Positions 9,718 through 40,945 of a stretch of DNA of 64,000 nucleotides are shown in pieces. The position numbers and the translations under genes were made by a program. The notes under the pieces were generated by a model, which saw nothing but the letters and a program-made list of their open reading frames with translations, was not told where the DNA came from and made no database searches. The stretch comes from Lachnoclostridium sp. GTDB lineage: Bacteria; Bacteroidota; Bacteroidia; Bacteroidales; Muribaculaceae. The stretch's first letter is position 1. Every line of letters begins with the position of its first letter. The stretch is taken from positions 150,978 to 214,977 of the forward strand of contig JAMPAP010000002.1 of the NCBI GenBank assembly GCA_023667185.1, in the 5' to 3' direction.

Positions 9718-9759
9718 TTTTCAAGTGCACAAATTTACTAATTCTGACTACTTCTTAAA

Positions 9760-12700: not shown

Positions 12701-12813
12701 TGGTGATGAATAATGAGCTCCGCAACGTGCTTGTAAAATACATAGTCGATAACGATAATCTCAAGCCCATGCTTAAGCCTGAATATGGCCTGAGCGAGCT
12801 TGCTACTCTTTGA
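9760..12813 (+). CDS. SrfC-like large P-loop (dynamin-like?) GTPase
   Basis: Walker A FGKSQVGKSYMV (about 9934), DxxG-type LDILDFPGARS and a possible G4, GTKFN. It is 1017 aa with a long helical C-terminal part. Confidence 0.55.
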   Translation: MENKIIDAQMSANGAGLGWGRSFLKGSDLRELRSDLIRNRIDLRRIRYAASVNPAAAIFGKSQVGKSYMVDCLLTSETNPLTVYDAQGNAHGFIEKINPTGNGKEATSLISRFTTQKVWKDERFPVKAMMLSPVDVVLVLCDTYYNDVMGHKVPNDEAINAEIQRLRETYGNRPAVQTIIGEDDMMELREYFTLGLMEQRPDFQEALLRLNYFETLSELIDAVPVAAWADVFSFLWNRNPIITEVFNKLINTLERLDFSPTVYIKIAAVDKYLGTILHVDRIYELFGITELDDEKNGKTMIEKAKEPLMVALTENGKEVENIEKSVFCALAMEVDFTIVNPDDASSSEKLLKEKPFLHDLDILDFPGARSRQKNPEADITKKDASLMLIRGKVAYLFNKYSQQYLITNLLFCHDDTQNEVNTLPTLLKSWVEKTVGKTPSEREVFLRTAEVSPLFVIGTKFNIELKRRDVDSKGSAEQREQEKRNRWIKRFSILSSVISASIKSPWELEWTPGKAFKNFYMLRSFEYSCLDGLYEGYQEKDDNGDWVLSRNADGTLRGEQRVSDDYKDFFAGLKSTFLQNEYVTEHFEDASKSWDEAVAPGKDGSAWIIENLTRSGRNMKAAREQTFSRLSDSAMTKLCSALKKHFHDDNSDSELRRALESAGRIELLFDALFGKDKYFFSDFINALLVHEDEINDTILCTVNSIKVLDDTDMSVLFAIRNRAKIVAPYTEDEHGNRTPVDLEENMKENRRRMRETYHFSTDEELDEFLAGMKLTMEDIINPPMVRNLARIIVDAVEKYWMDTYLSLENFSEFVERGMSEKGIETLLSNMRVLYKDKLHMSERLTARLAPYVTARENLDDMAEMLADICAEMLNKFINTIGTSYFEEELWKDVHATVDHNGFDIKVDAAEYDSDIDFDGEKTREGLNDVFDVFDNVDVILNQVPVDTEKLSYFSNYHAFREWTDMMKIAFLATCGIPKYDVVMNNELRNVLVKYIVDNDNLKPMLKPEYGLSELATL

Positions 12814-25216: not shown

Positions 25217-26443
25217 ATGAGATTACTATCAGAAGAGTCGTTCAGCCGCATTGAGCCGCTGATTGCCGATGATTATAAACGCACCCGCAGCCGCCTGGCG
25301 CTGTTGTTGTCCCCGCAAGACTGCGAAGTGTTTGCCCAGGTGGACCTGCTGCCCAACCGCGGCAAGTGGGTAGCCGATGTCCCCGGCCAGCTGATGCCCT
25401 ATTCCGAGGCTTCGGCCGCCGAGCGCGAGCAGATCGCAGCCTATCTCGAGGATAAGAAGCGCGCCATAGCCGCTGCCATCGGCGACAAGGTCCCCTACGT
25501 CAACGACCTTTTCCGTATCCCTGATGAAAACCAGATCTTCTGGTTCAAGGACAGCACCGGCAATGTCCGCGTAGTGCTGTCGCAGTGGGGATTCCGCCGC
25601 ATCAATGCTCCCGGCGACGTCGACGTGATAGAATTTCTCATCTCCCAGCCCCGCACAATGTCAATATGCGAGGTTGTGGCCAAGGGCGTATACTCTGACG
25701 GACAGCCTTACGCCTGCCAGCCCATCACGCTCTCGATTTTCGGCAATACATCTGAGGTAAAAACCGCTACTGATGGTACTTACTTCATAGGCAAAGTGCC
25801 CATGAACAAGGAATTCTCAATCACGGCCGATGGACAGATATACGACTTCGTGACAAGTGCTGACCGCGAAAGCTACGACTTCATTGTCAATCGCTACACC
25901 GGGTGGAGTGTCCGCGTCGTTGGTCAGAAAGGTGAGTCTGTAGCCAACTATCCGGTGAAGATCAACGGCCGCGACTGCATGACCGATGCTGACGGCATCA
26001 TCGCTGCCGATAATGTCATGATGACCGGCGATGACCGCCTGCAGGTAGAAGCTGAATATGGCGAACCGATGGAATACACCCTCTCTCCAGTCAGAGAAAA
26101 CAACGACTTCGAATACCGCGTTACTCTCCCTGTAAAAGAGGAAGTGAAGCCCCCGCTGCCCCCTGTGCCCCCCGAACCGCCGGTTAAGAAACCCGTCAGA
26201 GTGCATCTGCTCGACCTTGACGGCTCGCCCCTTGACTTCGTTGATGTATTCATTGACCAGCCCAACGGCACCACTGTCACCGCCACAACCGATGCCGACG
26301 GCTGGGCCACCTTCCCACGCGACACCTTTGTTGACAAGAAGAAGTCAAAGCTCCGCTTCAAGCTCACCAAGGAGTATCAGGAGCGTCGCCGCCAGATGAA
26401 AGAACAGCAAAAACAGCAACAAACTTCACAGAATCATGGCTAA
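25217..26443 (+). CDS. Cytoplasmic protein: N-domain shared with the S8 protease, CarboxypepD_reg-like beta-sandwich repeats, Pro-rich stretch, basic tail
   Basis: SAAEREQIAAYLEDKKRAIAAAI...VRVVLSQWGF resembles SGAEREKYERILDKTMRSIARSV...RVVITEWGM in 12841..15438. Repeats of the type TDADG.. occur. Pro-rich stretch: PPLPPVPPEPP. Confidence 0.65.
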   Translation: MRLLSEESFSRIEPLIADDYKRTRSRLALLLSPQDCEVFAQVDLLPNRGKWVADVPGQLMPYSEASAAEREQIAAYLEDKKRAIAAAIGDKVPYVNDLFRIPDENQIFWFKDSTGNVRVVLSQWGFRRINAPGDVDVIEFLISQPRTMSICEVVAKGVYSDGQPYACQPITLSIFGNTSEVKTATDGTYFIGKVPMNKEFSITADGQIYDFVTSADRESYDFIVNRYTGWSVRVVGQKGESVANYPVKINGRDCMTDADGIIAADNVMMTGDDRLQVEAEYGEPMEYTLSPVRENNDFEYRVTLPVKEEVKPPLPPVPPEPPVKKPVRVHLLDLDGSPLDFVDVFIDQPNGTTVTATTDADGWATFPRDTFVDKKKSKLRFKLTKEYQERRRQMKEQQKQQQTSQNHG

Positions 26444-28325
26444 ATCTCAGGATATCAACTATCAGAAAAAATTCAAGTTTGACCCCCGGCAGGACGAATA
26501 CGAATTCCAGCTCAAGAAGAAACGTAACTGGTGGTGGCTGCTGTTGCTGCTGTTACCCCTTCTGCTGCTGATCCGCTGCGAGCGCGACATGACCATAACC
26601 GTGGTCGACGATGATACCGACGAGCCTATCGAAGGAGCCCAGCTCAACTTAAGGTACACTTCCCATTATCTGCTCAAAGACTGGAAATTCCTCCTCAACG
26701 AGCCGGTGGCGCGCGAGGCTATTACTGATGTCGACGGAGAAGCACGTTTCGAGAAGCTCCCCTGCAGCGTCTACTCCTACATATTCTATTGCCTGAGCCG
26801 CGCTGCTGTCACGGCCTCCGACCCTTGCCATGAACCGGCCTCGATAATGCCGCTGGTTCACTACACATGGAATGCCGAAATCCGCCTCAAAAAGCTCCTC
26901 ACTGACGTCACCGTCACGGTGGTCGATGATGAGACCTCTGATCCAATCCCGGGGGCTGTGGTCACAGTAACCACCGGCGAAGTCACTGATTCCGTAACCA
27001 CAGATGCCGCCGGGCGTGTCAAGCTCGAAAAAGTGCCTCACTGTGGTATTATCGATGTGCTGAAAGGCTCGGCCTTCGGCTACGCTGATACCTTGCGGCG
27101 CAACCTGCCCGTGGCGCTGCTCGAAGACCCTGACAGCGCTTATCTGCGACTCCGTCCCGTCAAGGAGCGCTTCACATTCTTCGTCAAAGATGTGGAGACT
27201 CGCGAGCCGATCCCCGGTGCAACAGCTGTGGTGACCCTCGACGACCCCCGATCCGGCTATCGCGGCACTCATGAATACAAGACCAACGTCGATGGCCGCG
27301 GCATGGGATTCTACGACGAAGGGTTTATCCTCTCGCGCCTCAGCATAAAGGCCTCAAAAGTGCATTACAACGATTCCACCCTGAAGGGTGACTACACTAT
27401 CGGTGAATTTATAAAACTGCCTGACTCGCTTCGCACCGTATGGCTGCGCCCGATGCCATTTAACACTGAATTCCAGTGTATCGACTCCCTCTCGCGCAAG
27501 CCCATACCGGGAGTGGAAAATGTGATCACTGTCACTGACCCTGCCGGAAATACCGAGACCTATACCGAGATATCCAACCGCAATGGCAAATTCCCCGTCC
27601 ATGCCAAGGAAGGCTCCAAGATACATATCGACTCGCGTCTCCCCGGCGAGTACAAGGACAAGGCTACTGACATCCCCTCCTACGACGGAAAAGAGGAGAT
27701 CATCGAAATGATGCCTGACGTCACTCCGCTTGACGTAGACATGGTGATGGTGATTGACAACACCGGCTCAATGTCAGGAACCATAGGTATGGTAAAGCGC
27801 AATGCCTCGAATTTCTATTCTGACCTCAACGAGGAATGTGTGAAACATAAACTGTATATCAACAAGTTCCGCCTGAAGGTGATCTCGTACGGCGACCTGT
27901 CAGAAAAGCCGTTCAATGTATCACCGCTATATGAATTACCTGACCAGACTGCTGCTTACAAAGCATTCGTAAGCTCAATTATAGCCGCCGGAGGTGGCGA
28001 TGAGCCTGAGGATGGATTGCAGGCCGTGCGCGACGCCATGTCGACATCCTGGGTAAGCGGGCCGCAGCTCAAGCGCCATGTGATCGTCGTGTACACTGAT
28101 GCTCCGACCCATAGTATGTCATCCGGCGACTTCGACGCCATTAAATCCAAATGGATGTCAATGGATCCCGATTCGCGGCGCATGATCCTCTTTGCCCCGG
28201 CTAAAGATTCATGGAACACGCTGGCCACCTGGCCTCAGGTAAGTCACGAGACCGGTTCGCTCTCGTCAGTGCTCGCCGGAACCGGTTACGCCAACGTCCT
28301 CGAAAATATCTGTAAATCACTCTAA
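26436..28325 (+). CDS. N-terminally anchored periplasmic protein: four CarboxypepD_reg-like repeats plus a C-terminal von Willebrand factor A (vWA) domain
   Basis: TM segment KKKRNWWWLLLLLLPLLLLIRC. Repeats are ITVVDDDTDEPIEGAQ, VTVVDDETSDPIPGAV, FFVKDVETREPIPGAT and FQCIDSLSRKPIPGVE. The MIDAS-like motif is VMVIDNTGSMSG (about 27750), followed later by GGGDEPEDG and VVYTDAP. Confidence 0.8.
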   Translation: MAKSQDINYQKKFKFDPRQDEYEFQLKKKRNWWWLLLLLLPLLLLIRCERDMTITVVDDDTDEPIEGAQLNLRYTSHYLLKDWKFLLNEPVAREAITDVDGEARFEKLPCSVYSYIFYCLSRAAVTASDPCHEPASIMPLVHYTWNAEIRLKKLLTDVTVTVVDDETSDPIPGAVVTVTTGEVTDSVTTDAAGRVKLEKVPHCGIIDVLKGSAFGYADTLRRNLPVALLEDPDSAYLRLRPVKERFTFFVKDVETREPIPGATAVVTLDDPRSGYRGTHEYKTNVDGRGMGFYDEGFILSRLSIKASKVHYNDSTLKGDYTIGEFIKLPDSLRTVWLRPMPFNTEFQCIDSLSRKPIPGVENVITVTDPAGNTETYTEISNRNGKFPVHAKEGSKIHIDSRLPGEYKDKATDIPSYDGKEEIIEMMPDVTPLDVDMVMVIDNTGSMSGTIGMVKRNASNFYSDLNEECVKHKLYINKFRLKVISYGDLSEKPFNVSPLYELPDQTAAYKAFVSSIIAAGGGDEPEDGLQAVRDAMSTSWVSGPQLKRHVIVVYTDAPTHSMSSGDFDAIKSKWMSMDPDSRRMILFAPAKDSWNTLATWPQVSHETGSLSSVLAGTGYANVLENICKSL

Positions 28326-29494: not shown

Positions 29495-30949
29495 ATGTTA
29501 GATATAATCGCTAAAAACCCGTTCCGCATCCTCGGTGTCTACTCTGACTCCGGCCTGCGTGACATCGTGGCCAATCGCAACCGCATCAATGCCTTTGCGA
29601 AAGTGGGGAAGCCCTGTACGTTTCCTACTGATCTTGCCTCACTCGCCGGACCGGTTGACCGCTCGCCCGAATCAGTGCAGGCTGCTGACTCGGCTCTTAC
29701 CATCGATGCTGACAAACTGAAATATGCTACCTTCTGGCTTATGAAGGGGGAGCCGGCTGACGCTGACGCCCTCCGTATGGCCTCGGAAGGAAACATAGCC
29801 GGTGCGCTCGCCTCGCTCGAGAGCCGCAGCTCCATGGCCTCGCTTCAGAACCTTGCAGTCATCAGCCTGATGCGCAACGATATCCGCAAGGCTTCAGTGG
29901 CTTTCGCAAATATGACTGACCGCTATGCCGCAAACTTCTACTCGGCTATCGGACTCAATGTCGGCGGCACGGAAACTCTCGTGGATACATACGTGAAGAC
30001 ACTCCTGGAGAATGACAGCACGATCGATGCGGCCGTGTTTACCGGTAATGATTATCCCGCCTCGTGGAATGCAACTGTAAAAGACGTGGCCGCTGTGCCC
30101 GTCATCTCCCAGCTTGAGGCGTTGATAGCCGAGGCCCGCAAGTCGAAGGACGGCAGCCCCGTAGAGCGTCTCAAAGCCGGTATCAACCTCTCCAAGAAGT
30201 CAAAACCGCTGCTGATGAAGCTGCGCAATATGCTGACCACCAAAGATCTCAAACTCGTCAATATATCTGACAAGGTAGGCAACGAGGTGCTTCAGTGCGG
30301 TATCGACTTCTATAACGATTCTGACGACATTTCTACTGCCAAGGATGCCCTCGCTCTTGCCAAGGATGCCCGCATGATAGTGCTCGGCTCCATGGCCCGC
30401 CAGCGTTGCGACGAGAATATCAAGACCCTCGAAAACAATGCCGCTCTTATCCCGTCAGCCGCTATTCAGGCCGACGTTAATGCTATCAGTGTAGCTCTCA
30501 ACGACTTCACCTCCCACAACCAGTCGTTTGACTCGCTCATCAGCCTCCTTGACCTTGTAGAGCCTCACCTGAAGAAGATGAAGGACACTGTAGGTGAAAA
30601 TGATCCTATCTATATCAACTGGTCAACAAACGTAGTGAATGTAGCTCTTAACCTGATCATCGACAAGGTTAATGCTGCACAAAATGTAGCAGGCAATGGC
30701 TCTAAACAGCTTCAGGACTATGTCACATATGTCGCAATGGCTCACGGTTTCATGAATCGTCTGTCGAAATACGCGATGGATCAGGCGTGCCGCAATCGAT
30801 TCAATACCAATAACAATACACTCAATGATCTTTATGCCCAAACCAAAAATGTCAATACCGGCGGCAGCAGCGATTCCGGCTTCAGCAGCTGCTTTATACA
30901 GATCCTGATTTATTTGGGTATCATGGCATTAGTGGGAATGTGTAGTTAA
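29495..30949 (+). CDS. Tail-anchored helical protein with a J-domain-like N-terminus that lacks the HPD motif
   Basis: NPFRILGVYSDSGLRDIVANRNRINAF resembles J-domain helix I/II (DYYEILGV...). No HPD tripeptide follows. C-terminal TM: FIQILIYLGIMALVGM. The family call is weak. Confidence 0.45.
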   Translation: MLDIIAKNPFRILGVYSDSGLRDIVANRNRINAFAKVGKPCTFPTDLASLAGPVDRSPESVQAADSALTIDADKLKYATFWLMKGEPADADALRMASEGNIAGALASLESRSSMASLQNLAVISLMRNDIRKASVAFANMTDRYAANFYSAIGLNVGGTETLVDTYVKTLLENDSTIDAAVFTGNDYPASWNATVKDVAAVPVISQLEALIAEARKSKDGSPVERLKAGINLSKKSKPLLMKLRNMLTTKDLKLVNISDKVGNEVLQCGIDFYNDSDDISTAKDALALAKDARMIVLGSMARQRCDENIKTLENNAALIPSAAIQADVNAISVALNDFTSHNQSFDSLISLLDLVEPHLKKMKDTVGENDPIYINWSTNVVNVALNLIIDKVNAAQNVAGNGSKQLQDYVTYVAMAHGFMNRLSKYAMDQACRNRFNTNNNTLNDLYAQTKNVNTGGSSDSGFSSCFIQILIYLGIMALVGMCS

Positions 30950-30969: not shown

Positions 30970-31899
30970 ATGAAAAAATATTTTACAATGCTTGCTCTTG
31001 CAGCGGCAATGACAATGTCGGCACAGATGCCGGGTATCCCTTCAGAAAATCTCGCTGATTCGCTTAAGGCGGTTAATAAGGAGCTCGTTACCATTAACGA
31101 TGCTGTAAAAAAGAATGCCGAGGATATAAAGGCAGTCAATGAGTGCATTGACGCCACTGAAAAGGCTTTCGTTGCCAAAACTGACTCAATGACAGCCGAG
31201 GCCTCCGCGCTCGCGGCTCGCGTTGACGATATCAACTCTACTCTCAATGCCGCCATCGAGAAGGTGAACGAGACCCTCGGCACCGAGATCCGTACCACCA
31301 AGACTGAGGTGACAACGCGCACCGGCTCGCTGCTGACATACGGTATTATTGCGGCCATCGTGCTACTCCTTCTTGTTGTGGCTGCATATATGATACTTCG
31401 CAAACGTATCGGCGACGGCAGCGTGGATCTTGACACGGTCAAGGAGGCTAACAAGCAACTTCAGGAGCAGTCAGTCAGCCTTGACAATAAGCTTACTGAA
31501 GTGCTTCAGCAACAACTCGCCATGGCTGATACGCTGAAAAAGGCCACGGCAAACAGCTCTTCCGAGCCTGATCACTCTCTGGAGCTATCGATTGCCAACG
31601 AGCTCGCCCGCATAGAGCAGAACCTCGCTTTCATGGATCCCAAAACCAAGGGTGTGTCACAGCTTAAAAACCGTGCAGCGGCTATCAGCGAAGCTCTCAA
31701 AAAGAAGGGCTACGAGATTGTGCCGATGCTCGGCCAGGATTACAAGGAGGGCATGAACGTGGAGGCCACGATGGAGGAGGATGACACTCTCGAGCCCGGT
31801 AAGCAGATTATTCGCCGCGTTAGCCGTCCGGCCGTGCTCTACAAAGGATCTATGATACAGCCCGCTCAGGTAGTGGTGGCTTTCAACCCCGAAGACTAA
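30970..31899 (+). CDS. Membrane-spanning protein with a cytoplasmic GrpE-like C-terminal domain
   Basis: It has a signal peptide (MLALAAAMTMSAQ), a periplasmic coiled coil, and the TM segment LLTYGIIAAIVLLLLVVAAYMIL followed by RKR. The C-terminus KKGYEIVPMLGQDYKEGMNVEATMEEDDTLEPGKQIIRRVSRPAVLYKGSMIQPAQVVVA follows the GrpE beta-domain pattern (G.E.I...G...dp..h.A.......PG.V..V...GY...G..iRpA.V.V). Confidence 0.6.
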   Translation: MKKYFTMLALAAAMTMSAQMPGIPSENLADSLKAVNKELVTINDAVKKNAEDIKAVNECIDATEKAFVAKTDSMTAEASALAARVDDINSTLNAAIEKVNETLGTEIRTTKTEVTTRTGSLLTYGIIAAIVLLLLVVAAYMILRKRIGDGSVDLDTVKEANKQLQEQSVSLDNKLTEVLQQQLAMADTLKKATANSSSEPDHSLELSIANELARIEQNLAFMDPKTKGVSQLKNRAAAISEALKKKGYEIVPMLGQDYKEGMNVEATMEEDDTLEPGKQIIRRVSRPAVLYKGSMIQPAQVVVAFNPED

Positions 31900-31920: not shown

Positions 31921-34422
31921 ATGGCATCACTTAAAATAATATACGGTATCGACCTCGGTACCACCAACTCGGCAATCACCCGATTCGAAAATGGTAAGGC
32001 CGTAGTAAAGAAAAATTCGCTCCAGAGTGACACCACACCATCTGTTGTGGCATATCGCGCCCAGGGTAAGGCCCCTTCGGTAGGCTCACGTGCAAAAACT
32101 CAGCTTGAGAAGGATCACGTGATGGCCTTCCGCAAGCCGGGCTATAAGTCAAACGTATTCCATGAGTTCAAGCGCGTGATGGGCACTGACCATAAGTTTT
32201 TCTCTTCAGCGCTTAATGCCGAGCTGACTCCTGAGGATCTTTCGGCCGAAGTGCTAAAAGAGCTGCGTAAGAATATCCTTGATGATGAGGTCTCATCGGC
32301 CGTAATCACCGTCCCTGCGATGTTTAATAACACTCAGAAGGATGCAACCAAGCGAGCTGCAAAACTCGCCGGATTTGACCATGTAGAGCTTATTCAGGAA
32401 CCGGTGGCCGCATCTGTGGCTTATGGTTTGTCCTCAAAGATGAAGAATGCTTACTGGGTGGTGTTTGACTTCGGTGGCGGTACATTTGACGCTGCTCTGA
32501 TGCGTATCACTGACGGTATCATGCAGGCTATAGACACTGCCGGTAACAACAAGCTCGGCGGCAAGGATATCGACAACGCTATAATCGAGCAGATTATGAT
32601 CCCATATTTCCGCTCCAACTATACAATTGAAAACATCCTGACCAACAATCGCAAGGCCTTTGCCGAGGTGTGGAAGGCAAAGGCTGAGGAGGCGAAGATT
32701 AACCTTTCGTTCAACTCATCGTATGAGCTCGAGACTGACCTCGGCGAGGATTACGGTACTGATGATCTCGGCGATGAGCTTGCCCTCTCGCTCACCATCA
32801 CTCAGGATGATCTGGAGCGTGTGGCTGCGCCCATCTATCAGAAAGCCATCGATATAACCAAGGAACTGCTTGCCCGCAACGGTATCAACGGCAAGGATCT
32901 CGGCGCTCTTATCCTCGTGGGCGGTCCTACACATTCGCCCATTGTGCGTCGTATGCTCCGCGAGCAGGTGACTCCGAATGTCGACACTTCTATTGACCCG
33001 ATGACCTGTGTGGCTGCCGGGGCTGCCATCTATGGCTCTACAATAGATGTCCCTGAGGAGATTGCTGACACCAAGCGTGACCGCTCCAAGGTGCAGCTCG
33101 CCGTGACTTATCAGAGTACCTCAGTCGAGACCGAGGAGTGGGTGTCAGTATCGCTGCTCCGTGACAAGTGTGACAACTACACCGAGCCTACGGTGAGAGT
33201 GGAATTTGCCCGCACTGACGGCCTGTTTACCTCGCCCGCCTCAGAAGTGGATGCAGCCGGCGACGTTGTATCGCTGATGCTCAAGCCGGATGCTACAAAT
33301 ACGTTTGATATCCGCTGCTACGACAGCCGCGGCACACGCCTCGAGTGTGAACCATCGCAGATCTCCATCATTCAGGGTGTGGCCGGATTAGGCGATGCTG
33401 TCATCCCTATGGCTCTCGGTATCGGTGCTACCAATAAGGATAATGTCGAAGTATTCATCCCCATTCAGGGTCTCGAGAAGAGCCGCAAGCTCCCCGCTTC
33501 GGGAAGTACTCGCTCTAACGGACTTCGCACACAGAAGGATATTCGCCCAGGTGTGGAGTCTGACACCGTCAGAATGTCTCTTTATCAGACCGAGGATGTG
33601 GGCGAAAACGTCAGAGTGCTCTATTGCCAGCGCATCTACGATGTACTGGTCACCGGCGAGGATGTACCCGTACTCGTGCCTGCCGAGAGTGTGATAAATA
33701 TCAACCTCCATGCCGAGCGCTCGGGCACAATCGATAAGTTTGAGATCGAGATTCCGAGCATCAACTTCACTCTCGACCTTACCGAGCGCATGAGCAAGAG
33801 CACCACATCAGCTCTCTCCGAAAGCTTCCTTGTGCATGAGATATATGATGCCAAGACCCGCGCCCGCCGCCTTGATAATGCCGCCTTGATCAACCGCATT
33901 GACCTTCTTGAGCAGCGCCTGAAGAATGCTGCCGGCGACCGCGATGCCCTCGATGGTATCTTTGCCGAGCTCCAGTCAATCGGTCGCGAGATCGATCATC
34001 AGATGTCGCTCGGCGAATGGGATCGCGAGGCTGCCCGACTTAAGTCAATGTTTGCCGAACTCTCAAACGATAACGTCAAGTATGGCAACGCTGATACCAC
34101 CGCTCTAATCGAGCAGATCAAGAAGGAGATGGACAAGGTGCTCGAAAGCCGTAACGTCCAGCTTGCCAAGGATCTTTACAGCCAGATGTGGAATCTCGAC
34201 TTCCGCATCGCTGAGGTGGAATTCTATATCGCATGGATACAGCAATGGAACAGCGAGTTTGCCCGCAAGAACTGGACTAATCCCTCGCGTGCCCGCCAGC
34301 TCGTTGACAATGGTCTGTCCATCATCCGCCAGGGCTCGCCTACGGCCGATGCTCTCCGCCCCATTGCCTTTGAGCTCAACGATATGCTACCCGAACACCA
34401 GAAAACCGATACTCTTCACTGA
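31921..34422 (+). CDS. Non-canonical Hsp70 (DnaK-family) ATPase, 833 aa
   Basis: IYGIDLGTTNSAI, VITVPAMFNNTQKDATKRAAKLAGF, VFDFGGGTFDAAL and LVGGPTHSPIVRRML. SBD-beta-like: IPMALGIGATN...VFIPI. An extra segment of about 115 aa lies between the NBD and SBD, and the helical C-terminus is long. Confidence 0.9.
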   Translation: MASLKIIYGIDLGTTNSAITRFENGKAVVKKNSLQSDTTPSVVAYRAQGKAPSVGSRAKTQLEKDHVMAFRKPGYKSNVFHEFKRVMGTDHKFFSSALNAELTPEDLSAEVLKELRKNILDDEVSSAVITVPAMFNNTQKDATKRAAKLAGFDHVELIQEPVAASVAYGLSSKMKNAYWVVFDFGGGTFDAALMRITDGIMQAIDTAGNNKLGGKDIDNAIIEQIMIPYFRSNYTIENILTNNRKAFAEVWKAKAEEAKINLSFNSSYELETDLGEDYGTDDLGDELALSLTITQDDLERVAAPIYQKAIDITKELLARNGINGKDLGALILVGGPTHSPIVRRMLREQVTPNVDTSIDPMTCVAAGAAIYGSTIDVPEEIADTKRDRSKVQLAVTYQSTSVETEEWVSVSLLRDKCDNYTEPTVRVEFARTDGLFTSPASEVDAAGDVVSLMLKPDATNTFDIRCYDSRGTRLECEPSQISIIQGVAGLGDAVIPMALGIGATNKDNVEVFIPIQGLEKSRKLPASGSTRSNGLRTQKDIRPGVESDTVRMSLYQTEDVGENVRVLYCQRIYDVLVTGEDVPVLVPAESVININLHAERSGTIDKFEIEIPSINFTLDLTERMSKSTTSALSESFLVHEIYDAKTRARRLDNAALINRIDLLEQRLKNAAGDRDALDGIFAELQSIGREIDHQMSLGEWDREAARLKSMFAELSNDNVKYGNADTTALIEQIKKEMDKVLESRNVQLAKDLYSQMWNLDFRIAEVEFYIAWIQQWNSEFARKNWTNPSRARQLVDNGLSIIRQGSPTADALRPIAFELNDMLPEHQKTDTLH

Positions 34423-36179
34423 TGATTTACAAAGCTAAAGATACAATACTTGACCGCTACACTGTCCTTTTCCCGATAAAGGAAGGAGCCTACGCCGAGT
34501 CGTATCGCGTGAAAGATGCTGCCGGCAAGCGGTATTTCTTCAAGCTGATTGACCGGTCCAGGCTTCAGCCCGAGCAGATCGATGACTATGGGCGTGTGCG
34601 CGAAATAGAGATCGTAAAGGATTTGGCTCACCCATGCCTCCCGGCTATGATCGAGTCGGGCGAGGTGACTATCGGCGGCAAGGAGTACGAATACCTTGTC
34701 AACAAATATGTGCCCTCCGAGACCCTTGCTGACCGCCTTCAGCGCGCGCAGACCCTCAAAATGTATGATATCAAGGCCATAGCTCGCGGAGTGCTCTCGG
34801 CTCTGACAGCGCTGCATGAGAATGACAATCCGGTGATCCACAATGAGGTCACGGCTCTGAATGTGCTGATGGATCTGTCGGTCGACGATCCGTCGGCTGT
34901 ATGCCTTATCGACTTTGGCTATGCCCGCCATACTGACGAGGCTCATGGCCAGTCGATCGAGGGGCTCAACTGGTTTTACCTCGCTCCGGAACGGTTTGAC
35001 GGCGCTTCAACGGTGCAGAGCGACCTCTATTCAGTAGGAGCTCTGCTATATCAGCTGACCTTCGGGCTGCTCCCCTGGTTCTGCGACCTCTCGACCATAG
35101 CTCCCGAGAAGCGTAAGCAGTATATCCTGCGCCAGAAGCACACCGCATTGCTGATGCCCGTAGTGGATAAGTTTGAGCTCGACGATCGTTTCCTCAACAT
35201 CCTCCGCAAAGCTCTTGCTGCTGATGTCGACGAGCGTTTTCAGTCGGCCCGGGAGTTTCTTGACGCCATCGAGGGAAAAGGCGAGGTGATAGCGCCGTCG
35301 CAGAATCCTGCTACGGCTGATGATCGCCGCGATGCTTTCTCAGCTTCGCGTCAGCGCTCCGGCAACGGGTTTGAGGATGTGGCAGGTATGACAGAGCTTA
35401 AGGAAATGCTCCGCAAGCGGGTGCTCAACATCCTGCGCGATACCGAGAAGGCAAAGCGTTACAAGCTTCAGATACCCAACGGTATACTCTTCTACGGCCC
35501 TCCCGGATGCGGCAAGTCGTTTCTTGCTGAGAAGTTTGCCGAGGAAGCCGGCTACAATTTCAAGCTCGTGAAGGCATCTGACCTGGCGTCTATCTATGTT
35601 CACGGCTCGCAGGAAAAGATAGGCCAGCTCTTTGACGAGGCACGCAAGAATGCGCCTACGATCCTCTGCTTCGACGAGTTTGACGCTCTGGTGCCGGCTC
35701 GCGGTACGCAGGGCGCCGAGCACCAGTCGGGCGAGGTCAACGAGTTTCTTACCCAGCTCAACAACTGCGGCGAGACCGGCGTCTTCGTCATCGCGTCGAC
35801 CAATCGTCCCGACATGATCGACCAGGCCGTGCTGCGTCGCGGCCGTATTGACCAGGTGATTTTCATCCCGGTGCCTGATGCCGAGAGTCGTGCCGCGATG
35901 TTTGAGCTCCATCTCAAGGGTCGCCCCTTCGACACCTCGATCGACTATTCAGCACTCGCTGCCTTGACTGAGAATTACGTGGCAAGTGACATAGCCTACG
36001 TGGTCAACGAGGCCGCAGCCCGCGCAGCGTTTGCTGACGAGAAGATCACTTCCGAGCATCTCGAAGAGGTAATCTCCGAGTGCCGCCCTTCGCTCAACGA
36101 GGGCGCGCTGCGCAACTACGACAAGCTACGCGAAAAAATGGAAGGCATCGTGGAGTCACGGCGCCGCATAGGTTTTTAA
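34422..36179 (+). CDS. Fusion of a Ser/Thr-kinase-like domain (atypical catalytic loop) and a classical-clade AAA+ ATPase
   Basis: Kinase-like motifs: YFFKLI (beta-3 Lys), IHNEVTALNVLMD in place of HRDLKPxN (34839..), DFGYA (34911..) and YLAPERF. AAA+ motifs: Walker A GPPGCGKS (about 35496), Walker B ILCFDEFD, sensor-1 IASTN and the Arg-finger region DQAVLRRGRID. Confidence 0.85.
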   Translation: MIYKAKDTILDRYTVLFPIKEGAYAESYRVKDAAGKRYFFKLIDRSRLQPEQIDDYGRVREIEIVKDLAHPCLPAMIESGEVTIGGKEYEYLVNKYVPSETLADRLQRAQTLKMYDIKAIARGVLSALTALHENDNPVIHNEVTALNVLMDLSVDDPSAVCLIDFGYARHTDEAHGQSIEGLNWFYLAPERFDGASTVQSDLYSVGALLYQLTFGLLPWFCDLSTIAPEKRKQYILRQKHTALLMPVVDKFELDDRFLNILRKALAADVDERFQSAREFLDAIEGKGEVIAPSQNPATADDRRDAFSASRQRSGNGFEDVAGMTELKEMLRKRVLNILRDTEKAKRYKLQIPNGILFYGPPGCGKSFLAEKFAEEAGYNFKLVKASDLASIYVHGSQEKIGQLFDEARKNAPTILCFDEFDALVPARGTQGAEHQSGEVNEFLTQLNNCGETGVFVIASTNRPDMIDQAVLRRGRIDQVIFIPVPDAESRAAMFELHLKGRPFDTSIDYSALAALTENYVASDIAYVVNEAAARAAFADEKITSEHLEEVISECRPSLNEGALRNYDKLREKMEGIVESRRRIGF

Positions 36180-36200
36180 ACTATTCACAAAGTGTAAATC

Positions 36201-36692
36201 ATGATAAAAGATAATTTGAATCTCGCTACAGCCTTCGCATTTATGGCATGCGACGGCGATATCTCGCCCGATGAGGTGAAGTTGATAAAGCAGATGAATG
36301 CTGACGGCATCATCCCGTGTGACGATGTCGACGATAAGCTCGAGCAGCTACTCGGGCAGCTCAACGCCCGCGGTCACGGCTTTATGAAAGACTATTTCCA
36401 GGCCGTCACTGACGCTGACCTTGACGCCGACGCGGCTCTCGCGCTACTCAAGATTGCCGTCGCCACCATCTATGCCGACGAAATCGTGGAATACTCCGAG
36501 GTGAAGTTTTTCCGAGCCGTGCGCTCGCATATCCTCTCAATGACCGATGAGCAGATCCTCGAGGCTATCCCCGAGGTTGAGGACTTTTGGCTGGAGTCTG
36601 ACGTCAAGTCGGCCGCTCCGGGCTACCTCGACCAGCAGTATATGGAAGCTGTCGAGCTACCGCAGTTTGACATCGCATCATTGAAGAAGTAA
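36201..36692 (+). CDS. TerB-like (tellurite-resistance TerB / DjlA N-domain type) protein
   Basis: Two copies of the TerB-type motif: FMACDGDISPDEVKLIKQM and IYADEIVEYSEVKFFRAV. All-helical, 163 aa. Confidence 0.65.
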   Translation: MIKDNLNLATAFAFMACDGDISPDEVKLIKQMNADGIIPCDDVDDKLEQLLGQLNARGHGFMKDYFQAVTDADLDADAALALLKIAVATIYADEIVEYSEVKFFRAVRSHILSMTDEQILEAIPEVEDFWLESDVKSAAPGYLDQQYMEAVELPQFDIASLKK

Positions 36693-37744
36693 TGGATAAG
36701 GTATTTATAAGCTACCGCCGCGATACGGGGCAGGATATCGCCCGCGGCCTCAACGACCGTCTCACCCAGCGCGGCATCAAGACCTTCTTTGACCGTGAGA
36801 CGCTCCATAACGGCAAGTTTAACCAGCAACTGCTCGGCGCCATCCGCGAGTGCCGCGACTTCATACTTGTGTTCTCCAAGGGCGCCCTTGACCGCTGCGT
36901 CAACCCTGACGACTGGGTGCGCACCGAGATCGAGTGTGCTCTGAAGCTGCATAAAAACATTGTGATAGTCTACACCATCCAGCCGCTCGAATTTCCGGCC
37001 AATCTCCCCGCGTCGCTCAACGAGCTGAAGTTTTACCAGGGCGTGTATCTCAACCATGAGTATTACAACGAGAGCATTGACCGCATCATCAACCACCTCG
37101 AGACCGGGCGTCAGCTCCATCGCAGCCGCGTCTTGACATGGGGATGCGTGGCTCTGGCCATTATCGTGACTGCCGCGTGGATGTACTTCGGCCATGAAAA
37201 GAACGCTGACTCTCAGCCCGCTGCCGTAGAGGATAGCGTGGCAGTGGTTGAGGAAGAGCAGATTGTAGTGGAGCAGCCTTCAAAGAAGAAGTCTACCCCC
37301 GTGCAGCAAGCCCCCTCAAAGCCCGTCGAAAAGTCTACCCCGGCCGTGGAGGAAAAGTCTCAGCCCGCAGCTACCCAGCCTGTAACCACCCAGCCTGTCG
37401 CCACTCAACCCGTAGCAACTCAGCCGCAGACACCCCGCAAGAGCGACGTGGAGCAGCTTGCCGAACGAGCTGCCTCGGGTGATGCCGCCGCAGCCTGTCA
37501 GATGGGTCTGCGGTTCCTTAACGGCGATGGCGTGTCAAAAAATTTCAAGACCGCCTTTGCATATTTCAACCAGTCGGCCTCGGCCGGTAACATCGATGGT
37601 ATGTACTGGCTCGGATACTGCTATCGCATGGGGCGCGGCACTTCCAAGGATTTAAATAAAGCCAAGCAATTGTGGAAACGCGCTGCCTCGGCGGGAAATG
37701 CCCGTGCCGCCCACGACCTCGAAGAAATCGAATCATTAATGTAA
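36692..37744 (+). CDS. TIR domain - TM - Pro/Thr/Gln-rich linker - Sel1 (SLR) repeat protein
   Basis: TIR: VFISYRRDTGQDIARGLNDRLTQRGIKTFFDRETLHNGKF...FILVFSKGAL...DWVRTEIECAL, with the conserved Glu present. TM: VLTWGCVALAIIVTAAWMYFG. Sel1: AACQMGLRFLNGDGVSKNFKTAFAYFNQSASAGNIDGMYWLGYCYRMGRGTSKDLNKAKQLWKRAASAGN. Confidence 0.85.
   Translation: MDKVFISYRRDTGQDIARGLNDRLTQRGIKTFFDRETLHNGKFNQQLLGAIRECRDFILVFSKGALDRCVNPDDWVRTEIECALKLHKNIVIVYTIQPLEFPANLPASLNELKFYQGVYLNHEYYNESIDRIINHLETGRQLHRSRVLTWGCVALAIIVTAAWMYFGHEKNADSQPAAVEDSVAVVEEEQIVVEQPSKKKSTPVQQAPSKPVEKSTPAVEEKSQPAATQPVTTQPVATQPVATQPQTPRKSDVEQLAERAASGDAAAACQMGLRFLNGDGVSKNFKTAFAYFNQSASAGNIDGMYWLGYCYRMGRGTSKDLNKAKQLWKRAASAGNARAAHDLEEIESLM
37370..37429 (+). 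repeat. Four tandem 15-nt coding units (ATQPV TTQPV ATQPV ATQPQ) in the TIR-Sel1 linker
   Basis: The four units gctacccagcctgta, accacccagcctgtc, gccactcaacccgta and gcaactcagccgcag were read directly. Confidence 0.85.
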
Positions 37745-37762
37745 TAAATAATCTGTATTGTT

Positions 37763-38374
37763 ATGAAAAAAACTATCATTTTATCACTGGTCACCATTAT
37801 GACCTCGTTGCTTTGTCCGGCAGAAATGTCAGCCCAAGGTTTTTGGAAAAAGGTTCAGAAAGCCGGTAAAGACATCGAGAAGACACTGAATGGAGTGTCT
37901 GAGACCTTGAATTCTGTGTCAGACAACAGTACCACCACCGCCGGAACATCCAAGACCTACACTCCCGGCAGCGACGGCCGCCTCAGCACCTCGAGCGAAG
38001 CCGATGGAATAAAACTGAAAGTCAAGAGCTGTAATGTCGACGATGAAAACAACGCCGTCATAGTCTTCACCCTCACCAACAACCGCCCCGATGACTACAG
38101 AGGATGGTTCAGTAACAATAGCAGCGAGGCATATGATGACGAAGGTAACTTATATCAGGGAAGTGATATCATAAGTTATGCTCCGGGTAATGCGGTAGTA
38201 TATGATTATAATAGTGAGTTGAAGATACCGGCCGGCCTTACTACGAAATGGAAAATGCGTGTCCGCAGAGTTGATCCTGCCGCAACGATGCTTAAAAAGG
38301 TACGCGTTCGTCTTACAAATAATCAAAGCTTCTACATCTACAACCTCCCCATCACCCGCGAAGGCGACGAATAA
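37763..38374 (+). CDS. Secreted beta-rich protein, last co-directional gene of the cluster; no recognised family
   Basis: Signal peptide IILSLVTIMTSLLCPAEMSAQ. Membership of the cluster rests only on the 18-nt spacing from the previous gene. Confidence 0.6.
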   Translation: MKKTIILSLVTIMTSLLCPAEMSAQGFWKKVQKAGKDIEKTLNGVSETLNSVSDNSTTTAGTSKTYTPGSDGRLSTSSEADGIKLKVKSCNVDDENNAVIVFTLTNNRPDDYRGWFSNNSSEAYDDEGNLYQGSDIISYAPGNAVVYDYNSELKIPAGLTTKWKMRVRRVDPAATMLKKVRVRLTNNQSFYIYNLPITREGDE

Positions 38375-38608
38375 CCCCCTCCACCTGTAGTGCCGCTCAT
38401 CCCGATACTGCAAACAAGCCCGGAGAGCGATGCCCTGCATGACCATATACCCGCCAGGGTGCTATTCTTGTCTCAGGAAATTTCCTCTCGATGAGATATC
38501 TATAGCTGAGCAAAATGTTATGGAAAGAGCGCCTTTAGGTGCTCCACAATGGTAGGCCCGGGCGATTTTATGAGCCCGGGTACATAAGCAACATAATGTA
38601 AACGAGCT

Positions 38609-38665
38609 CTGTAGGAGCGAAACAATGACAACGGCATAGCCAATGAAATTGTTTCGCGCCTACAG
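38609..38665. repeat. 18-bp inverted repeat (ctgtaggagcgaaacaat / attgtttcgcgcctacag, 17 of 18 complementary) with a 21-nt spacer
   Basis: Read directly. It lies 80 nt upstream of the Rhs start codon, in the 371-nt gap after the cluster. Confidence 0.8.
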
Positions 38666-38708
38666 CAGTTATCGCACAAATCTAGCGATGTTAAAGATTG
38701 TGAAATTC

Positions 38709-38739
38709 TTGCTTCACAAGCCTTTTCTTTCTATATTTG
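38709..38739 (+). promoter_or_regulatory. Candidate promoter of the Rhs gene (TTG, 20 nt, TATATTTG)
   Basis: A TAnnTTTG match at 38732..38739 ends 6 nt before the ATG at 38746, implying a very short leader or none. Confidence 0.35.
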
Positions 38740-38745
38740 TGAATT

Positions 38746-40320
38746 ATGAGATGGCTTCTCTCCATACTGATGCTCGCATCGCTTTCAATCCTTGTCGCCA
38801 ATCCCCTCCCCGCCAACGATTTGCGCCGTTACGGTGGTAAAAATCCTTTTGAAAACGATTTGGTTGATGATCTCGAGCTTACCTACTCCGGAAATCAGTT
38901 GCAGAATGTAACCGATGCCGCCACTGACTTTCCTTACTCAGAGTCACTCGATTTCAGAGCCCGTAAACATACAATCTTTACACCCGGCGATAAAATAGCC
39001 ACGGTATTTGACCGTTATGACGGGATTGTAGCTGACTCACTTGTGTTGGAACCCTACATTCCTTTCAATTCCACTGATTTCTCTTATGATGCCAACGGCA
39101 ATGTATGCCGCGACTTCCATTCAGGCATCTCATCGATATCATACAATCCTTTAAACCTGCCACAGAAGGTCAACTATAGCGACGAGGAAATCATTGCAGC
39201 GCGACTGCCACTTGTTACCCAAATATCATACACTTATGATGCCCTTGGGAAGAAGCACTCCGTCAATGAATGTCGGAAACTGGGCAATCGTATCCTGTCA
39301 CAGGGTGACAAGATCAGTTATATCGGAGACTACATTGTAGTAAATGACACAATAGATCGTCTGATGACTCCTTACGGATACCTTCGCAATGGAGTGTTTC
39401 ATACATATCTGCGCGACTATCAGCAAAACATAGTATGCGTAGTGACACCCGATGACGTTATACAGACCAATATTTATTATCCCGACGGCCTGACCACATC
39501 CAACTCCACCGGCGTAGCAGCCAACACATTCAAGCATACCGGTAAAGAGCTCCTTCTCGGACATGGTTTGCCCAGATATGACTTCACAGCCCGATTCACA
39601 CAGCCCTCCACCGGAAATCACTTCCGGTCAATCGACCCCAACGCCGAAACCTATACAAAGTTATCACCTTACACCTTCTGTGCCGGTGACCCCATCAATA
39701 ATACCGACCCCTCCGGCCGAGATGTATTTATTTTATATTATAGCGAATGGGCTTGTCACCTTGCTATGTTGATTCAAAATAATGAAGGTAAATGGCAGTA
39801 TTATTCGATTAATGGTACTAAGTCTTATTATTCTTGGGGAAGTTCTGGGAGTGGTTCTCTTAATGGATCGTCCTCCGGCTTAAGTCATGATGATGTAGGT
39901 GTAGGTAATTGGGACAGTCCGGAGGAATTTCTGAATTCAGACTATAATTCTGAGGGAGACAAAGAAGATCCAAATATAAATCACTATGGCTATAATCAAG
40001 GATTATACATCCCAACCAGCCAGGAACAAGATCAACAAATGTCGGAAGACTTTAGGACACTTTCAGAAAAAACGAAATATAATGTATTTAATAACAACTG
40101 CGCAACAGCAGTTCAATTAGTATTACATAATGCAAAGATTCCTATAACGAGGACAGCAAGAAATAATCCTGATAATATGCATAGAATTGAAATCAATCAG
40201 AATATGAAAAGGGATAAGAGTTATAAAGAGTTACAATTTTTACCATATTGTGCATATACATCAATTAGACAAAATACTCTAAATCGCAGAACGATTTGGC
40301 GTAAGGGAAAAGGTCGATAA
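38746..40320 (+). CDS. Short Rhs/YD-repeat protein with an Rhs core end motif and a variable C-terminal toxin domain
   Basis: YD-type repeats FSYDANGNVCRD and YTYDALGKK. The core end is RYDFTARFTQPSTGNHFRSIDP...YTFCAGDPINNTDPSGR. The roughly 200 aa after DPSGR are encoded by markedly AT-rich DNA. Confidence 0.8.
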   Translation: MRWLLSILMLASLSILVANPLPANDLRRYGGKNPFENDLVDDLELTYSGNQLQNVTDAATDFPYSESLDFRARKHTIFTPGDKIATVFDRYDGIVADSLVLEPYIPFNSTDFSYDANGNVCRDFHSGISSISYNPLNLPQKVNYSDEEIIAARLPLVTQISYTYDALGKKHSVNECRKLGNRILSQGDKISYIGDYIVVNDTIDRLMTPYGYLRNGVFHTYLRDYQQNIVCVVTPDDVIQTNIYYPDGLTTSNSTGVAANTFKHTGKELLLGHGLPRYDFTARFTQPSTGNHFRSIDPNAETYTKLSPYTFCAGDPINNTDPSGRDVFILYYSEWACHLAMLIQNNEGKWQYYSINGTKSYYSWGSSGSGSLNGSSSGLSHDDVGVGNWDSPEEFLNSDYNSEGDKEDPNINHYGYNQGLYIPTSQEQDQQMSEDFRTLSEKTKYNVFNNNCATAVQLVLHNAKIPITRTARNNPDNMHRIEINQNMKRDKSYKELQFLPYCAYTSIRQNTLNRRTIWRKGKGR

Positions 40321-40337
40321 TTATTAACTATTTTACG

Positions 40338-40637
40338 ATGAAGATATTATCATGGCGAACGAAAGTGAGGCTGATAAAAGCTATACAGTTTTTATTGGTG
40401 GCAGCGCTGTTTGGATACGGTTTGTTCCTAATGATTATTTCTGCGATTTATCCGGCAAATTTTTCGTTGTTCAAGTATTTCTACGCGGCGCTATTGTTAT
40501 ATGGATTAATAAATCTGACATTATTTCGCGAAGCCGTTTCTTGGAAACGAACTATGAATATCATGCTGTTTTTGAGTCTGACGCCTGTGATTAATTATGT
40601 TATATTTGGGTTTCTTTGTGGATTGCTTTTTCATTAG
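40338..40637 (+). CDS. Small 3-TM membrane protein; candidate immunity protein 1
   Basis: It lies immediately downstream of the toxin tip and has the same AT-rich composition. Hydrophobic segments: FLLVAALFGYGLFLMIISAIY, YFYAALLLYGLINLTLF and IMLFLSLTPVINYVIFGFLCGLLF. Confidence 0.5.
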   Translation: MKILSWRTKVRLIKAIQFLLVAALFGYGLFLMIISAIYPANFSLFKYFYAALLLYGLINLTLFREAVSWKRTMNIMLFLSLTPVINYVIFGFLCGLLFH

Positions 40638-40639
40638 TC

Positions 40640-40945
40640 ATGAGACATACAGTAAAAGATTTGATAATCGGATGGCTGAAAACGATTGTGGCATTTGTGT
40701 TTATTGAAATTTTGGGATTGTTTCTCGCATTTCTTCCAGCAGTCTTTAATCAGTCTCCGCTTGTGTTATTATTTTCAGTTCCGGTGTTTTACGGTGCCAT
40801 TTATTTATTCAAGCAATATAGCAGGGATGAGCTTTCAAGTTTTATGCCCTCTCTATATCTTGATTGGGTAAGGTATATGATGATATTGATTTTTATTGCA
40901 GAGATAGTCATCGCAATATCGATGAGATTGATTTGGATAGATTAG
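40640..40945 (+). CDS. Small 3-TM membrane protein; candidate immunity protein 2 (or orphan immunity)
   Basis: ATG at 40640 (MRHTVKD), just after the previous stop; the ORF-track start at 40616 would overlap the previous gene. AT-rich and hydrophobic. Confidence 0.45.
   Translation: MRHTVKDLIIGWLKTIVAFVFIEILGLFLAFLPAVFNQSPLVLLFSVPVFYGAIYLFKQYSRDELSSFMPSLYLDWVRYMMILIFIAEIVIAISMRLIWID

Follow-up and report, generated by a model that had tools for sequence, protein, structure and literature searches.

What does a TIR domain do when it sits on a membrane-anchored protein at the end of an NTPase gene cluster, and does it belong to that cluster at all? The question is raised by a 64,000-nucleotide (nt) stretch of contig JAMPAP010000002.1 (assembly GCA_023667185.1), referred to below as the window, which encodes a TIR-TM-Sel1 protein of 350 amino acids (aa), composed of an N-terminal TIR domain, one transmembrane (TM) helix, and a tail of Sel1 repeats, directly after a 163-aa TerB-like protein. 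TIR enzymes that cleave nicotinamide adenine dinucleotide (NAD+) are central to SARM1-driven axon death, nucleotide-binding leucine-rich repeat immunity in plants, and several anti-phage systems, and every bacterial TIR NADase case worked out so far is, to our knowledge, a cytoplasmic system. A preliminary description of this DNA took the protein for a possible periplasm-sensing NADase effector and output module of the NTPase cluster; both of the open reading frames (ORFs) it proposed are present where it placed them, and the identical 350-aa sequence is found in NCBI nr as a "TIR domain-containing protein" of a metagenome-assembled genome (MAG) labeled Lachnoclostridium. The analysis described here makes it on balance probable that the gene product is an NADase of receptor-like build in the inner membrane, controlled from the periplasmic side, autonomous in nature and secondarily joined to the operon of a conserved cassette that ends in TerB. 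Two things are separated in this way: the autonomous unit formed by the TIR-TM-Sel1 protein and its secreted partner, and a widespread cassette that is itself a candidate system.

The N-terminal region belongs to the TIR superfamily, with matches to Pfam TIR_2 (E=1.7e-12, 48.3 bits against a cutoff of 28) and Pfam TIR (25.9 bits, cutoff 21.3). An AlphaFold2 (AF2) model built from 60 homologues, with a mean predicted local distance difference test (pLDDT) score of 83, places a TIR fold at residues 1-135, in which five strands (3-7, 30-33, 56-61, 89-94, and 117-119) alternate with helices. When the TIR domain was compared with all PDB sequences by phmmer, the human SARM1 TIR was the best match over the full domain (E=9e-23) with a shared identity of 41% (54/131), while the next family, the TIRs of plant TNL receptors, reached only 2e-4. 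The structural comparison gave the same picture, as the top 35 Foldseek matches in the PDB are all SARM1 or Caenorhabditis elegans TIR-1, with template modelling scores (TM-scores) of 0.81-0.93 (target-normalised, TIR-only target chains) and a root-mean-square deviation of 1.6-2.8 A. The other 15 of the 50 listed matches are Sel1-repeat proteins aligned to the tail, except for one further SARM1 chain, and neither ThsB nor AbTir, the enzymes that had been suggested for comparison, is among these 50. The TIR is therefore SARM1-type rather than ThsB- or AbTir-like, and SARM1 is the better reference enzyme on account of these matches and of the residues that the two share.

The glutamate context DWVRTEIECAL, from which catalysis had been predicted, is present, and its E79 pairs with the SARM1 catalytic E642 in the phmmer alignment (query residue 3 = SARM1 563, with a 3-residue gap; numbering checked). 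E79 belongs to a set of residues that are invariant in the 60-sequence alignment, namely F5, I6, S7, Y8, R9, R10, A17, D34, G41, D74, and E79, whereas F43 and W75 are nearly invariant. Among these, Y8, R9, R10, D34, G41, F43, W75, and E79 pair with SARM1 Y568, R569, R570, D594, G601, F603, W638, and E642. The WxxxE motif of helix alphaC, which carries the glutamate of enzymatic TIRs, is found without exception in the 120 closest TIR homologues, which are 37-49% identical to the window protein over this domain, so that loss of the glutamate among orthologs, which would have spoken against the proposed activity, is not observed. By sequence and structure comparison, the nearest relatives are SARM1 and TIR-1, and with the active-site and BB-loop residues kept, the domain is assigned to the SARM1-like clade. 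The WxxxE tryptophan (SARM1 W638), the glutamate, and an intact BB loop with its glycine have been described as important for activity, and head-to-tail TIR assembly as required for active-site formation (bioRxiv 10.1101/2022.05.07.491051). In published phylogenies, the SARM1 TIR nests inside a bacterial lineage (PMC13142454). The likeness to SARM1, together with the conserved residues, strengthens the argument for catalytic competence.

The TIR domain is followed by the only hydrophobic segment of the protein (aa 147-165 in a hydropathy scan), which AF2 places in a continuous helix spanning residues 137-166. Three arginines, together with two histidines, lie in the 15 residues before the segment, and one lysine and three acidic residues in the 15 after it. 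Based on the single TM segment, the charge of its flanks, and the modeled helix, the TIR is predicted to lie inside and the Sel1 repeats outside, in agreement with the topology first proposed. The 84-residue linker (aa 167-250) is rich in Pro, Val, Gln, Ala, Glu, Lys, and Thr, and its residues 177-241 have a pLDDT below 50. Four 15-nt tandem repeats had been described in it; they hold at the protein level, as four pentapeptides, but the DNA copies are degenerate, since successive units are identical at 12/15, 10/15, and 9/15 bases (manual count), and Tandem Repeats Finder did not report them at a minimum score of 30 over positions 36000-38000. The 90% identical orthologue P0002 carries a 5-residue insertion in the same region. 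The tail has Sel1-like family membership (Pfam Sel1, E=3.4e-17, 62.7 bits against a cutoff of 30.7), and the count of two to three repeats given earlier is borne out by two Pfam repeats and by six helices forming three hairpins in the model (residues 252-349, pLDDT > 94). Its Foldseek matches are LceB, HcpB, LpnE, and other Sel1 proteins. A scan of metagenomes with an alignment of the Sel1 tail returned 80 loci (28-43% identity) with neither a TIR head nor a partner-like neighbor, and these were set aside as generic Sel1 proteins rather than new contexts.

The gene that truly co-varies with TIR-TM-Sel1 is not TerB but the downstream gene, which starts 18 nt after the TIR gene ends and encodes a secreted protein of 203 aa. 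This protein begins with a signal peptide and an amphipathic helix, which a disordered stretch separates from a beta-sandwich at residues 77-196 in the AF2 model, with a pLDDT mostly of 73-87 and one low-confidence loop at approximately 134-145. It matches no Pfam family above threshold, and a profile search of 1.84 billion representative proteins recovered 260 relatives, 11 of them at E<=1e-30. A function based on the fold was considered and dropped, as the sandwich matches only generic Ig-like or beta-sandwich folds such as MPT63, ApaG, PCuAC, and YjhA (E>=1.7e-3). Homologues of the 203-aa protein lie directly 3' of this Sel1 module in three independent contexts: the window together with its orthologous contig L002; L001; and L086-L088.

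The last of these contexts, in which all the remaining close relatives of the 203-aa protein were found, at 37-39% identity, differs in the cytoplasmic part. In L086-L088 the relatives follow a 602-607-aa protein that has a TM segment, a low-complexity linker, and a Sel1 tail whose similarity extends to the terminal ...(S/T)LM, and whose 380-aa cytoplasmic head is unannotated and unrelated to TIR. The Sel1 module of the window is 50-56% identical to the C-termini of these proteins (L086/L088) and of P0003, a full-length TIR-TM-Sel1 homologue (44% identity) encoded between greA and trkH/mfd. The gene right after P0003 encodes 204 aa and is approximately 30% identical to the 203-aa product (32% by alignment, 29% by BLASTP); only this partner gene stands beside P0003 there, and no TerB or Hsp70 gene is nearby. 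From the L086-L088 and P0003 contexts, the conserved module is taken to comprise the secreted protein and the TM-linker-Sel1 segment, onto which different cytoplasmic heads can be placed, and the secreted beta-sandwich protein is probably a periplasmic binding partner of the Sel1 domain. L086 (3521-13210) and L088 (3366-13080) each hold a second system with the same tail and two paralogues of the 203-aa protein, flanked by an 800-aa protein (with zinc-ribbon matches in L088), a zinc-ribbon AAA ATPase (AAA_lid_6), and a C25-like peptidase.

The homologues outside the window also support the autonomy of the unit. P0003 exists without the cassette, and approximately 300 nt of AT-rich DNA upstream of it contain TAATTTTG, a promoter-like motif that matches TAnnTTTG, the Bacteroidetes -7 consensus. 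P0003 occurs in 107 indexed blocks of the assembly collection, with one shared neighborhood in the 24 contigs read, and two other relatives in which a TIR and a TM segment precede a different domain are solitary genes among metabolic genes. The TIR-TM-ectodomain arrangement is in fact a common bacterial architecture, since an N-terminal TIR is followed by a TM segment at approximately residue 146-200 in 84 of the 120 nearest homologues. Exactly one TM segment is present in 73 relatives, 69 of which have more Lys and Arg on the TIR side, and the tails behind it (median of 222 residues) include BspA-type leucine-rich repeat (LRR), MORN, TPR, Sel1, FGE-sulfatase, and other domains. This architecture is apparently uncharacterized; nothing specific on membrane-anchored bacterial TIRs was found in a literature search that was incomplete, while domain surveys from around 2009 are said to have noted TIR-TM combinations. 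Only one distant TIR relative was found in the IMG/VR viral contigs, with no sign of a phage-borne unit.

In the mechanism proposed for the periplasm-gated NADase, a cytoplasmic SARM1-type TIR would be anchored by one TM helix, and a disordered tether of approximately 84 residues would carry the three-hairpin Sel1 domain into the periplasm, where this domain and its beta-sandwich partner would control clustering. Since the active site needs head-to-tail TIR assembly, the oligomeric state may be set from outside. The trigger could be either the binding of a multivalent wall or envelope ligand or the loss of the partner, and lateral clustering of the TIR heads would then switch on cytoplasmic NAD+ cleavage. 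The expected outcome would be NAD+ depletion with growth arrest or death; a signal of the cyclic ADP-ribose (cADPR) type appears less likely, as depletion is favored over signaling by the lack of a ThsA-like or nucleotide-sensor gene near any family member examined. The TIR gene and its partner would form an autonomous two-gene unit, attached via a stop/start overlap to the 3' end of the cassette, that shares the transcription of the cassette and is not among its conserved components. If this is true, envelope events such as phage adsorption, cell-wall damage, or contact-dependent attack would be coupled to NAD+ destruction, and a simple bacterial model for clustering-gated SARM1-type catalysis would become available.

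Compared with animal systems, the protein shares with SARM1/TIR-1 the catalytic Glu, the WxxxE Trp, the YRR motif, and the Asp, Gly, and Phe of the BB loop. SARM1, however, is a soluble octamer of ARM-SAM-SAM-TIR chains with a C-terminal TIR and autoinhibition by an ARM domain that senses nicotinamide mononucleotide (NMN) and NAD+, whereas the TIR of the window is N-terminal and membrane-anchored, lacks SAM and ARM domains, and is joined to a Sel1 alpha-solenoid across the membrane. With Toll-like receptors it shares a single-pass layout, an extracytoplasmic repeat domain, and a cytoplasmic TIR, and some relatives of the window protein have LRR ectodomains; ligand-driven TIR clustering is a plausible common logic. 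The order of the chain is reversed, however, as the TIR comes first without a signal peptide and is an enzymatic SARM1-type domain rather than a scaffold, and the likeness is an analogy, homology of the whole architecture not being demonstrated. A broader idea, which is put forward tentatively, is that of "inverted Toll-like receptors", a large class of single-pass proteins with an N-terminal SARM1-type TIR NADase and interchangeable ectodomains (Sel1, BspA-type LRR, TPR, MORN, and others), in which a periplasmic or extracellular ligand would directly drive TIR assembly and NAD+ cleavage, whose lineage may also be the source of the animal SARM1 TIR, and which in the window would also stand under a chaperone/kinase/AAA/TerB membrane-stress cassette. 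Neither a receptor-like architecture of SARM1 type that comes with its own periplasmic partner nor the adjacent Bacteroidota cassette was found described in the incomplete literature search.

Several points weigh against the reading of the protein as an autonomous, periplasm-gated NADase. The TAATG overlap is kept in the sole orthologous locus available, and the link with TerB may thus be functional rather than incidental. The slot behind TerB is usually filled by a membrane protein in other genomes, as described below, which fits a variable membrane-output slot. The module of TM-Sel1 and partner recurs in L086-L088 with an AAA ATPase and a peptidase next to it, the pairing of Sel1 and partner is known from three independent contexts only, and the fold of the 203-aa partner offers no functional clue. 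NADase activity, clustering-based gating, and Sel1-partner binding are all inferred. The features on which the argument draws are listed in Table 1.

Table 1. Position of the TIR-TM-Sel1 gene, its parts, its partner, and the genes of the upstream cassette in the window.
Feature	Position	Strand	Basis or remark
J-like protein, 484 aa, cassette core	29495..30949	+	C-terminal TM anchor 465-483; syntenic
Membrane protein, 309 aa, cassette core	30970..31899	+	one predicted TM 125-143; syntenic
Hsp70-like ATPase, 833 aa, cassette core	31921..34422	+	Pfam HSP70; syntenic
Ser/Thr-kinase + AAA+ fusion, 585 aa, cassette core	34422..36179	+	Pfam Pkinase + AAA
TerB-like gene, 163 aa	36201..36692	+	final core gene of the upstream cassette; sub-threshold Pfam TerB
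TAATG stop/start overlap of TerB and TIR genes	36690..36694	+	also in L002
TIR-TM-Sel1 gene, 350 aa	36692..37744	+	ORF; Pfam TIR_2 + Sel1; AF2 model
Cytoplasmic SARM1-type TIR domain, aa 1-135 (predicted location)	36692..37096	+	phmmer against PDB; Foldseek
WxxxE motif, W75-E79	36914..36928	+	E79 codon 36926-36928, aligned with SARM1 catalytic E642
Single TM helix, aa 147-165, predicted N-in/C-out	37130..37186	+	hydropathy scan; AF2 helix
Disordered linker, aa 167-250, predicted periplasmic	37190..37441	+	composition; low pLDDT
Four degenerate pentapeptide repeats (A/T)TQP(V/Q)	37370..37429	+	imperfect 15-nt units, read from the sequence
Sel1 module, three hairpins, aa 252-349, ending ...SLM, predicted periplasmic	37445..37738	+	Pfam Sel1; AF2; Foldseek
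Secreted partner, 203 aa	37763..38374	+	signal peptide, helix, disordered stretch, beta-sandwich

The first alternative is that TIR-TM-Sel1 is a dedicated effector of the Hsp70/kinase-AAA/TerB cassette, placed in a variable membrane-output slot and activated by the chaperone, kinase, or AAA machinery, and it draws on the close linkage of the two genes. The TerB stop codon (TAA, 36690-36692) and the TIR start codon (ATG, 36692-36694) have one base in common, as reported previously, and the same TAATG overlap is kept in contig L002, which is 90-93% identical. The gaps to the flanking genes are 21 nt and 18 nt, and no TAnnTTTG motif was found on the + strand from 35176 to 38731, which leaves TerB, the TIR gene, and its partner without such a promoter-like motif of their own. 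The TIR gene is predicted to be co-transcribed with TerB in this genome, and the two are probably translationally coupled. Several proteins of the cassette are themselves membrane-anchored, the gene after TerB encodes a membrane protein in most loci, and effector modules with TM and Sel1 segments are known from NTPase-centered conflict systems (PMC7159879).

The distribution of the cassette tells against this alternative. A TerB profile was used to fetch 78 genome loci, with 80 of 130 tblastn-confirmed relatives kept, and BLAST against the window proteins revealed a fixed order of J-like protein, TM protein, Hsp70-like ATPase, kinase-AAA, and TerB, complete or nearly so in 56 of the 78 loci, with TerB following the kinase-AAA gene in 58. 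A TIR profile (60-sequence alignment, hmmsearch) found no match within 10 kb in any of these loci, and only the separately fetched L002 and L001 matched. The gene after TerB encodes a three-TM DUF6804 protein of approximately 100 aa in about 30 loci. Many loci from Prevotella and Bacteroidales have unrelated genes or none in this place. In L003/L008, the closest relatives of the cassette (Hsp70 82% and kinase-AAA 86% identical), the end of TerB is overlapped by a 413-aa protein, p413 (L003 10488-11729), which has no Pfam match and is single-pass and N-in, with a cytoplasmic head and an acidic/Pro-Lys linker ahead of a TM segment (217-235) whose C-terminal continuation lies in the periplasm; its topology class matches that of the TIR-TM-Sel1 protein. 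As the fetched cassette loci lack a TIR and the gene after TerB varies, TerB is not the partner of the TIR: TerB is a conserved member of a separate system, whose core it closes, and the TIR gene, which does not share that membership, is a lineage-specific addition. The base composition (GC) has no break between the TerB and TIR genes that would mark a recent insertion.

The idea that the TIR is a regular output module of the NTPase cluster accordingly finds no support, nor does that of a conserved functional TerB-TIR pair, given the stand-alone TIR-TM-Sel1 homologues without TerB. The unit with its partner exists without the cassette, and the nearest TIR relatives are solitary. A role as cassette effector is thus unlikely, although it keeps some weight because of the conserved overlap, the membrane proteins in the slot after TerB, and the AAA ATPase in L086-L088.

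The cassette deserves description in its own right. The HSP70 match of the Hsp70-like protein (9.9e-69) covers the nucleotide-binding domain only (residues 8-375), and the kinase-AAA fusion matches Pkinase (1.8e-26) and AAA (6.4e-34), with HN[DE], DFG, Walker A, and Walker B conserved across 61 orthologues. In the window kinase, HNE replaces HRD; a pseudokinase was considered and dropped, as HND, together with an intact DFG and beta3 Lys, is found in the majority of orthologues, and the kinase is atypical but probably active, judging from these motifs. The N-terminus of the 484-aa protein contains no HPD motif, and a profile of 17 N-termini of its family placed J domains on top among PDB entries with non-significant values (E=0.16-1.4), for which the protein is termed J-like only. 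The TerB identity given to the 163-aa protein is reasonable for the family, since 18 of 23 members match Pfam TerB at E<=0.01 (best E=5e-5), but the window protein itself lies under the Pfam threshold (E=0.0024, 18.6 bits, cutoff 24.4). Its relatives are called TerB-like by several sources, and the best PDB profile match is 2h5n (E=0.088). A first search found 218 TerB-like relatives at E<=0.001, mostly of 179 aa and from Flavobacteriia and Bacteroidia. TerB-like relatives with 36% identity are also present in three IMG/VR viral contigs (L174-L176), and in L007 the cassette adjoins a type I restriction-modification system, GmrSD, and a WYL protein. No description of this Bacteroidota cassette was found in the incomplete literature search.

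In Escherichia coli, DjlA combines a TM segment, a TerB-like domain, and a J domain, and recruits DnaK to the membrane. The cassette, though not the TIR protein, resembles it in combining a TerB-like protein, an Hsp70-like ATPase, and a J-like membrane protein, but these parts are in separate genes, and the J-like domain lacks HPD and has no significant similarity to J domains. By analogy, the composition of the cassette suggests a membrane-associated Hsp70 cycle. Modules of a TM segment with Sel1, PEGA, OmpA, or PASTA were described in NTPase-centered conflict systems and interpreted, for the TM and Sel1 type, as cell-wall-proximal (Kaur, Burroughs, Iyer & Aravind, 2020; PMC7159879). The window shares with them the order of TM then Sel1 and a surrounding cluster in which NTPases, VWA proteins, peptidases, and a kinase are encoded, whereas their cores are MoxR-vWA-iSTAND instead of Hsp70-like, kinase-AAA, and TerB; TerB is unmentioned in that paper (PMC7159879), and the TIR-TM-Sel1 unit also occurs outside any such system.

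Another alternative is that the protein is no conflict or death effector but a housekeeping or envelope-linked factor, for instance a TIR that serves as a scaffold or that regulates NAD+ turnover at a low level in step with the state of the cell wall. The neighbors of the stand-alone homologues are housekeeping genes such as greA, aspS, trkH, mfd, and purL rather than defense islands, and the shared neighborhood of P0003 and the single IMG/VR relative point in the same direction. Against this, all residues known to be needed for SARM1-type catalysis and assembly are kept, the window gene lies within a large cluster with kinase-AAA, subtilase, VWA, and RHS-toxin neighbors, and a constitutive SARM1-type NADase would be costly, so that tight gating is expected either way. 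A housekeeping role is considered rather improbable.

A ThsB-like signal generator, whose cADPR isomer or related nucleotide would be read by a separate sensor-effector, is very unlikely: cyclisation of ADPR is common among bacterial TIRs in which the WxxxE Trp is retained (bioRxiv 10.1101/2022.05.07.491051), cADPR or its variants are formed in vitro by TIR_2 domains from gut bacteria (PMC9092222), and weak matches to ThsB1 (PADLOC, E=2.3e-5) and to ThcB4 of Thoeris type III (E=7e-10) exist, but the latter scores 38 bits against a cutoff of 220, neither a ThsA-like gene (SIR2, Macro, or SLOG) nor a sensor gene is present among the cluster proteins scanned, no nucleotide-sensor gene lies next to the stand-alone homologues, and SARM1, the closest characterized relative, acts mainly by NAD+ depletion.

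The same comparison disposes of membership in known defense systems. The TIRs of Thoeris (ThsB), CBASS/Pycsar, SPARTA (TIR-APAZ), and AbTir are, like that of the window, bacterial TIRs with a catalytic Glu, and weak profile matches were also obtained to SAVED-TIR (PADLOC, covering TIR residues 2-87 only) and pAgo-associated TIR. The window protein, however, scores far below the family cutoffs and has no ThsA, cyclase, SAVED/STING, or Argonaute partner, and no TIR of these defense systems is among its 50 listed Foldseek matches. No ThsA-type sensor (SIR2, TM, or Macro with SLOG) was found among the cluster proteins scanned, and no nucleotide-sensor domain or cyclase in the protein or its neighbors, and assignment to Thoeris, CBASS, Pycsar, or SPARTA was rejected on partner genes and scores.

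With regard to the source of the DNA, the TAnnTTTG motif is enriched in the whole window (47 observed against 24.8 expected; 0 of 100 shuffles reach 47). The window also encodes a DUF4595 protein, presumably of a Bacteroidota-associated family, and all relatives of the cassette are in Bacteroidota. On these three grounds the NCBI label Lachnoclostridium is probably wrong for the source MAG; L003, for its part, is labeled "uncultured Staphylococcus".

Elsewhere in the window, approximately 32 kb of + strand genes, mostly with short gaps, run from the SrfB region to the TIR gene. SrfB (PF07520, E=4e-160) and an SrfC-like "Virul_Fac" protein (PF10139, E=2e-99) are encoded on the same strand at 6565-12813, directly followed by a TM-bearing S8 subtilase (12841-15438), and TM or secreted proteins continue up to two CarboxypepD_reg/VWA proteins (25217-28325). 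Downstream of the partner gene, 38746-40945 contains a 524-aa RHS core-domain protein (Rhs_assc_core, E=8e-9) that has its own TATATTTG motif at 38732 and a C-terminal region distinct from the core. Behind it, small multi-TM ORFs lie in a stretch of 35% GC. The RHS protein and the small multi-TM ORFs look like a polymorphic toxin tip with immunity genes.

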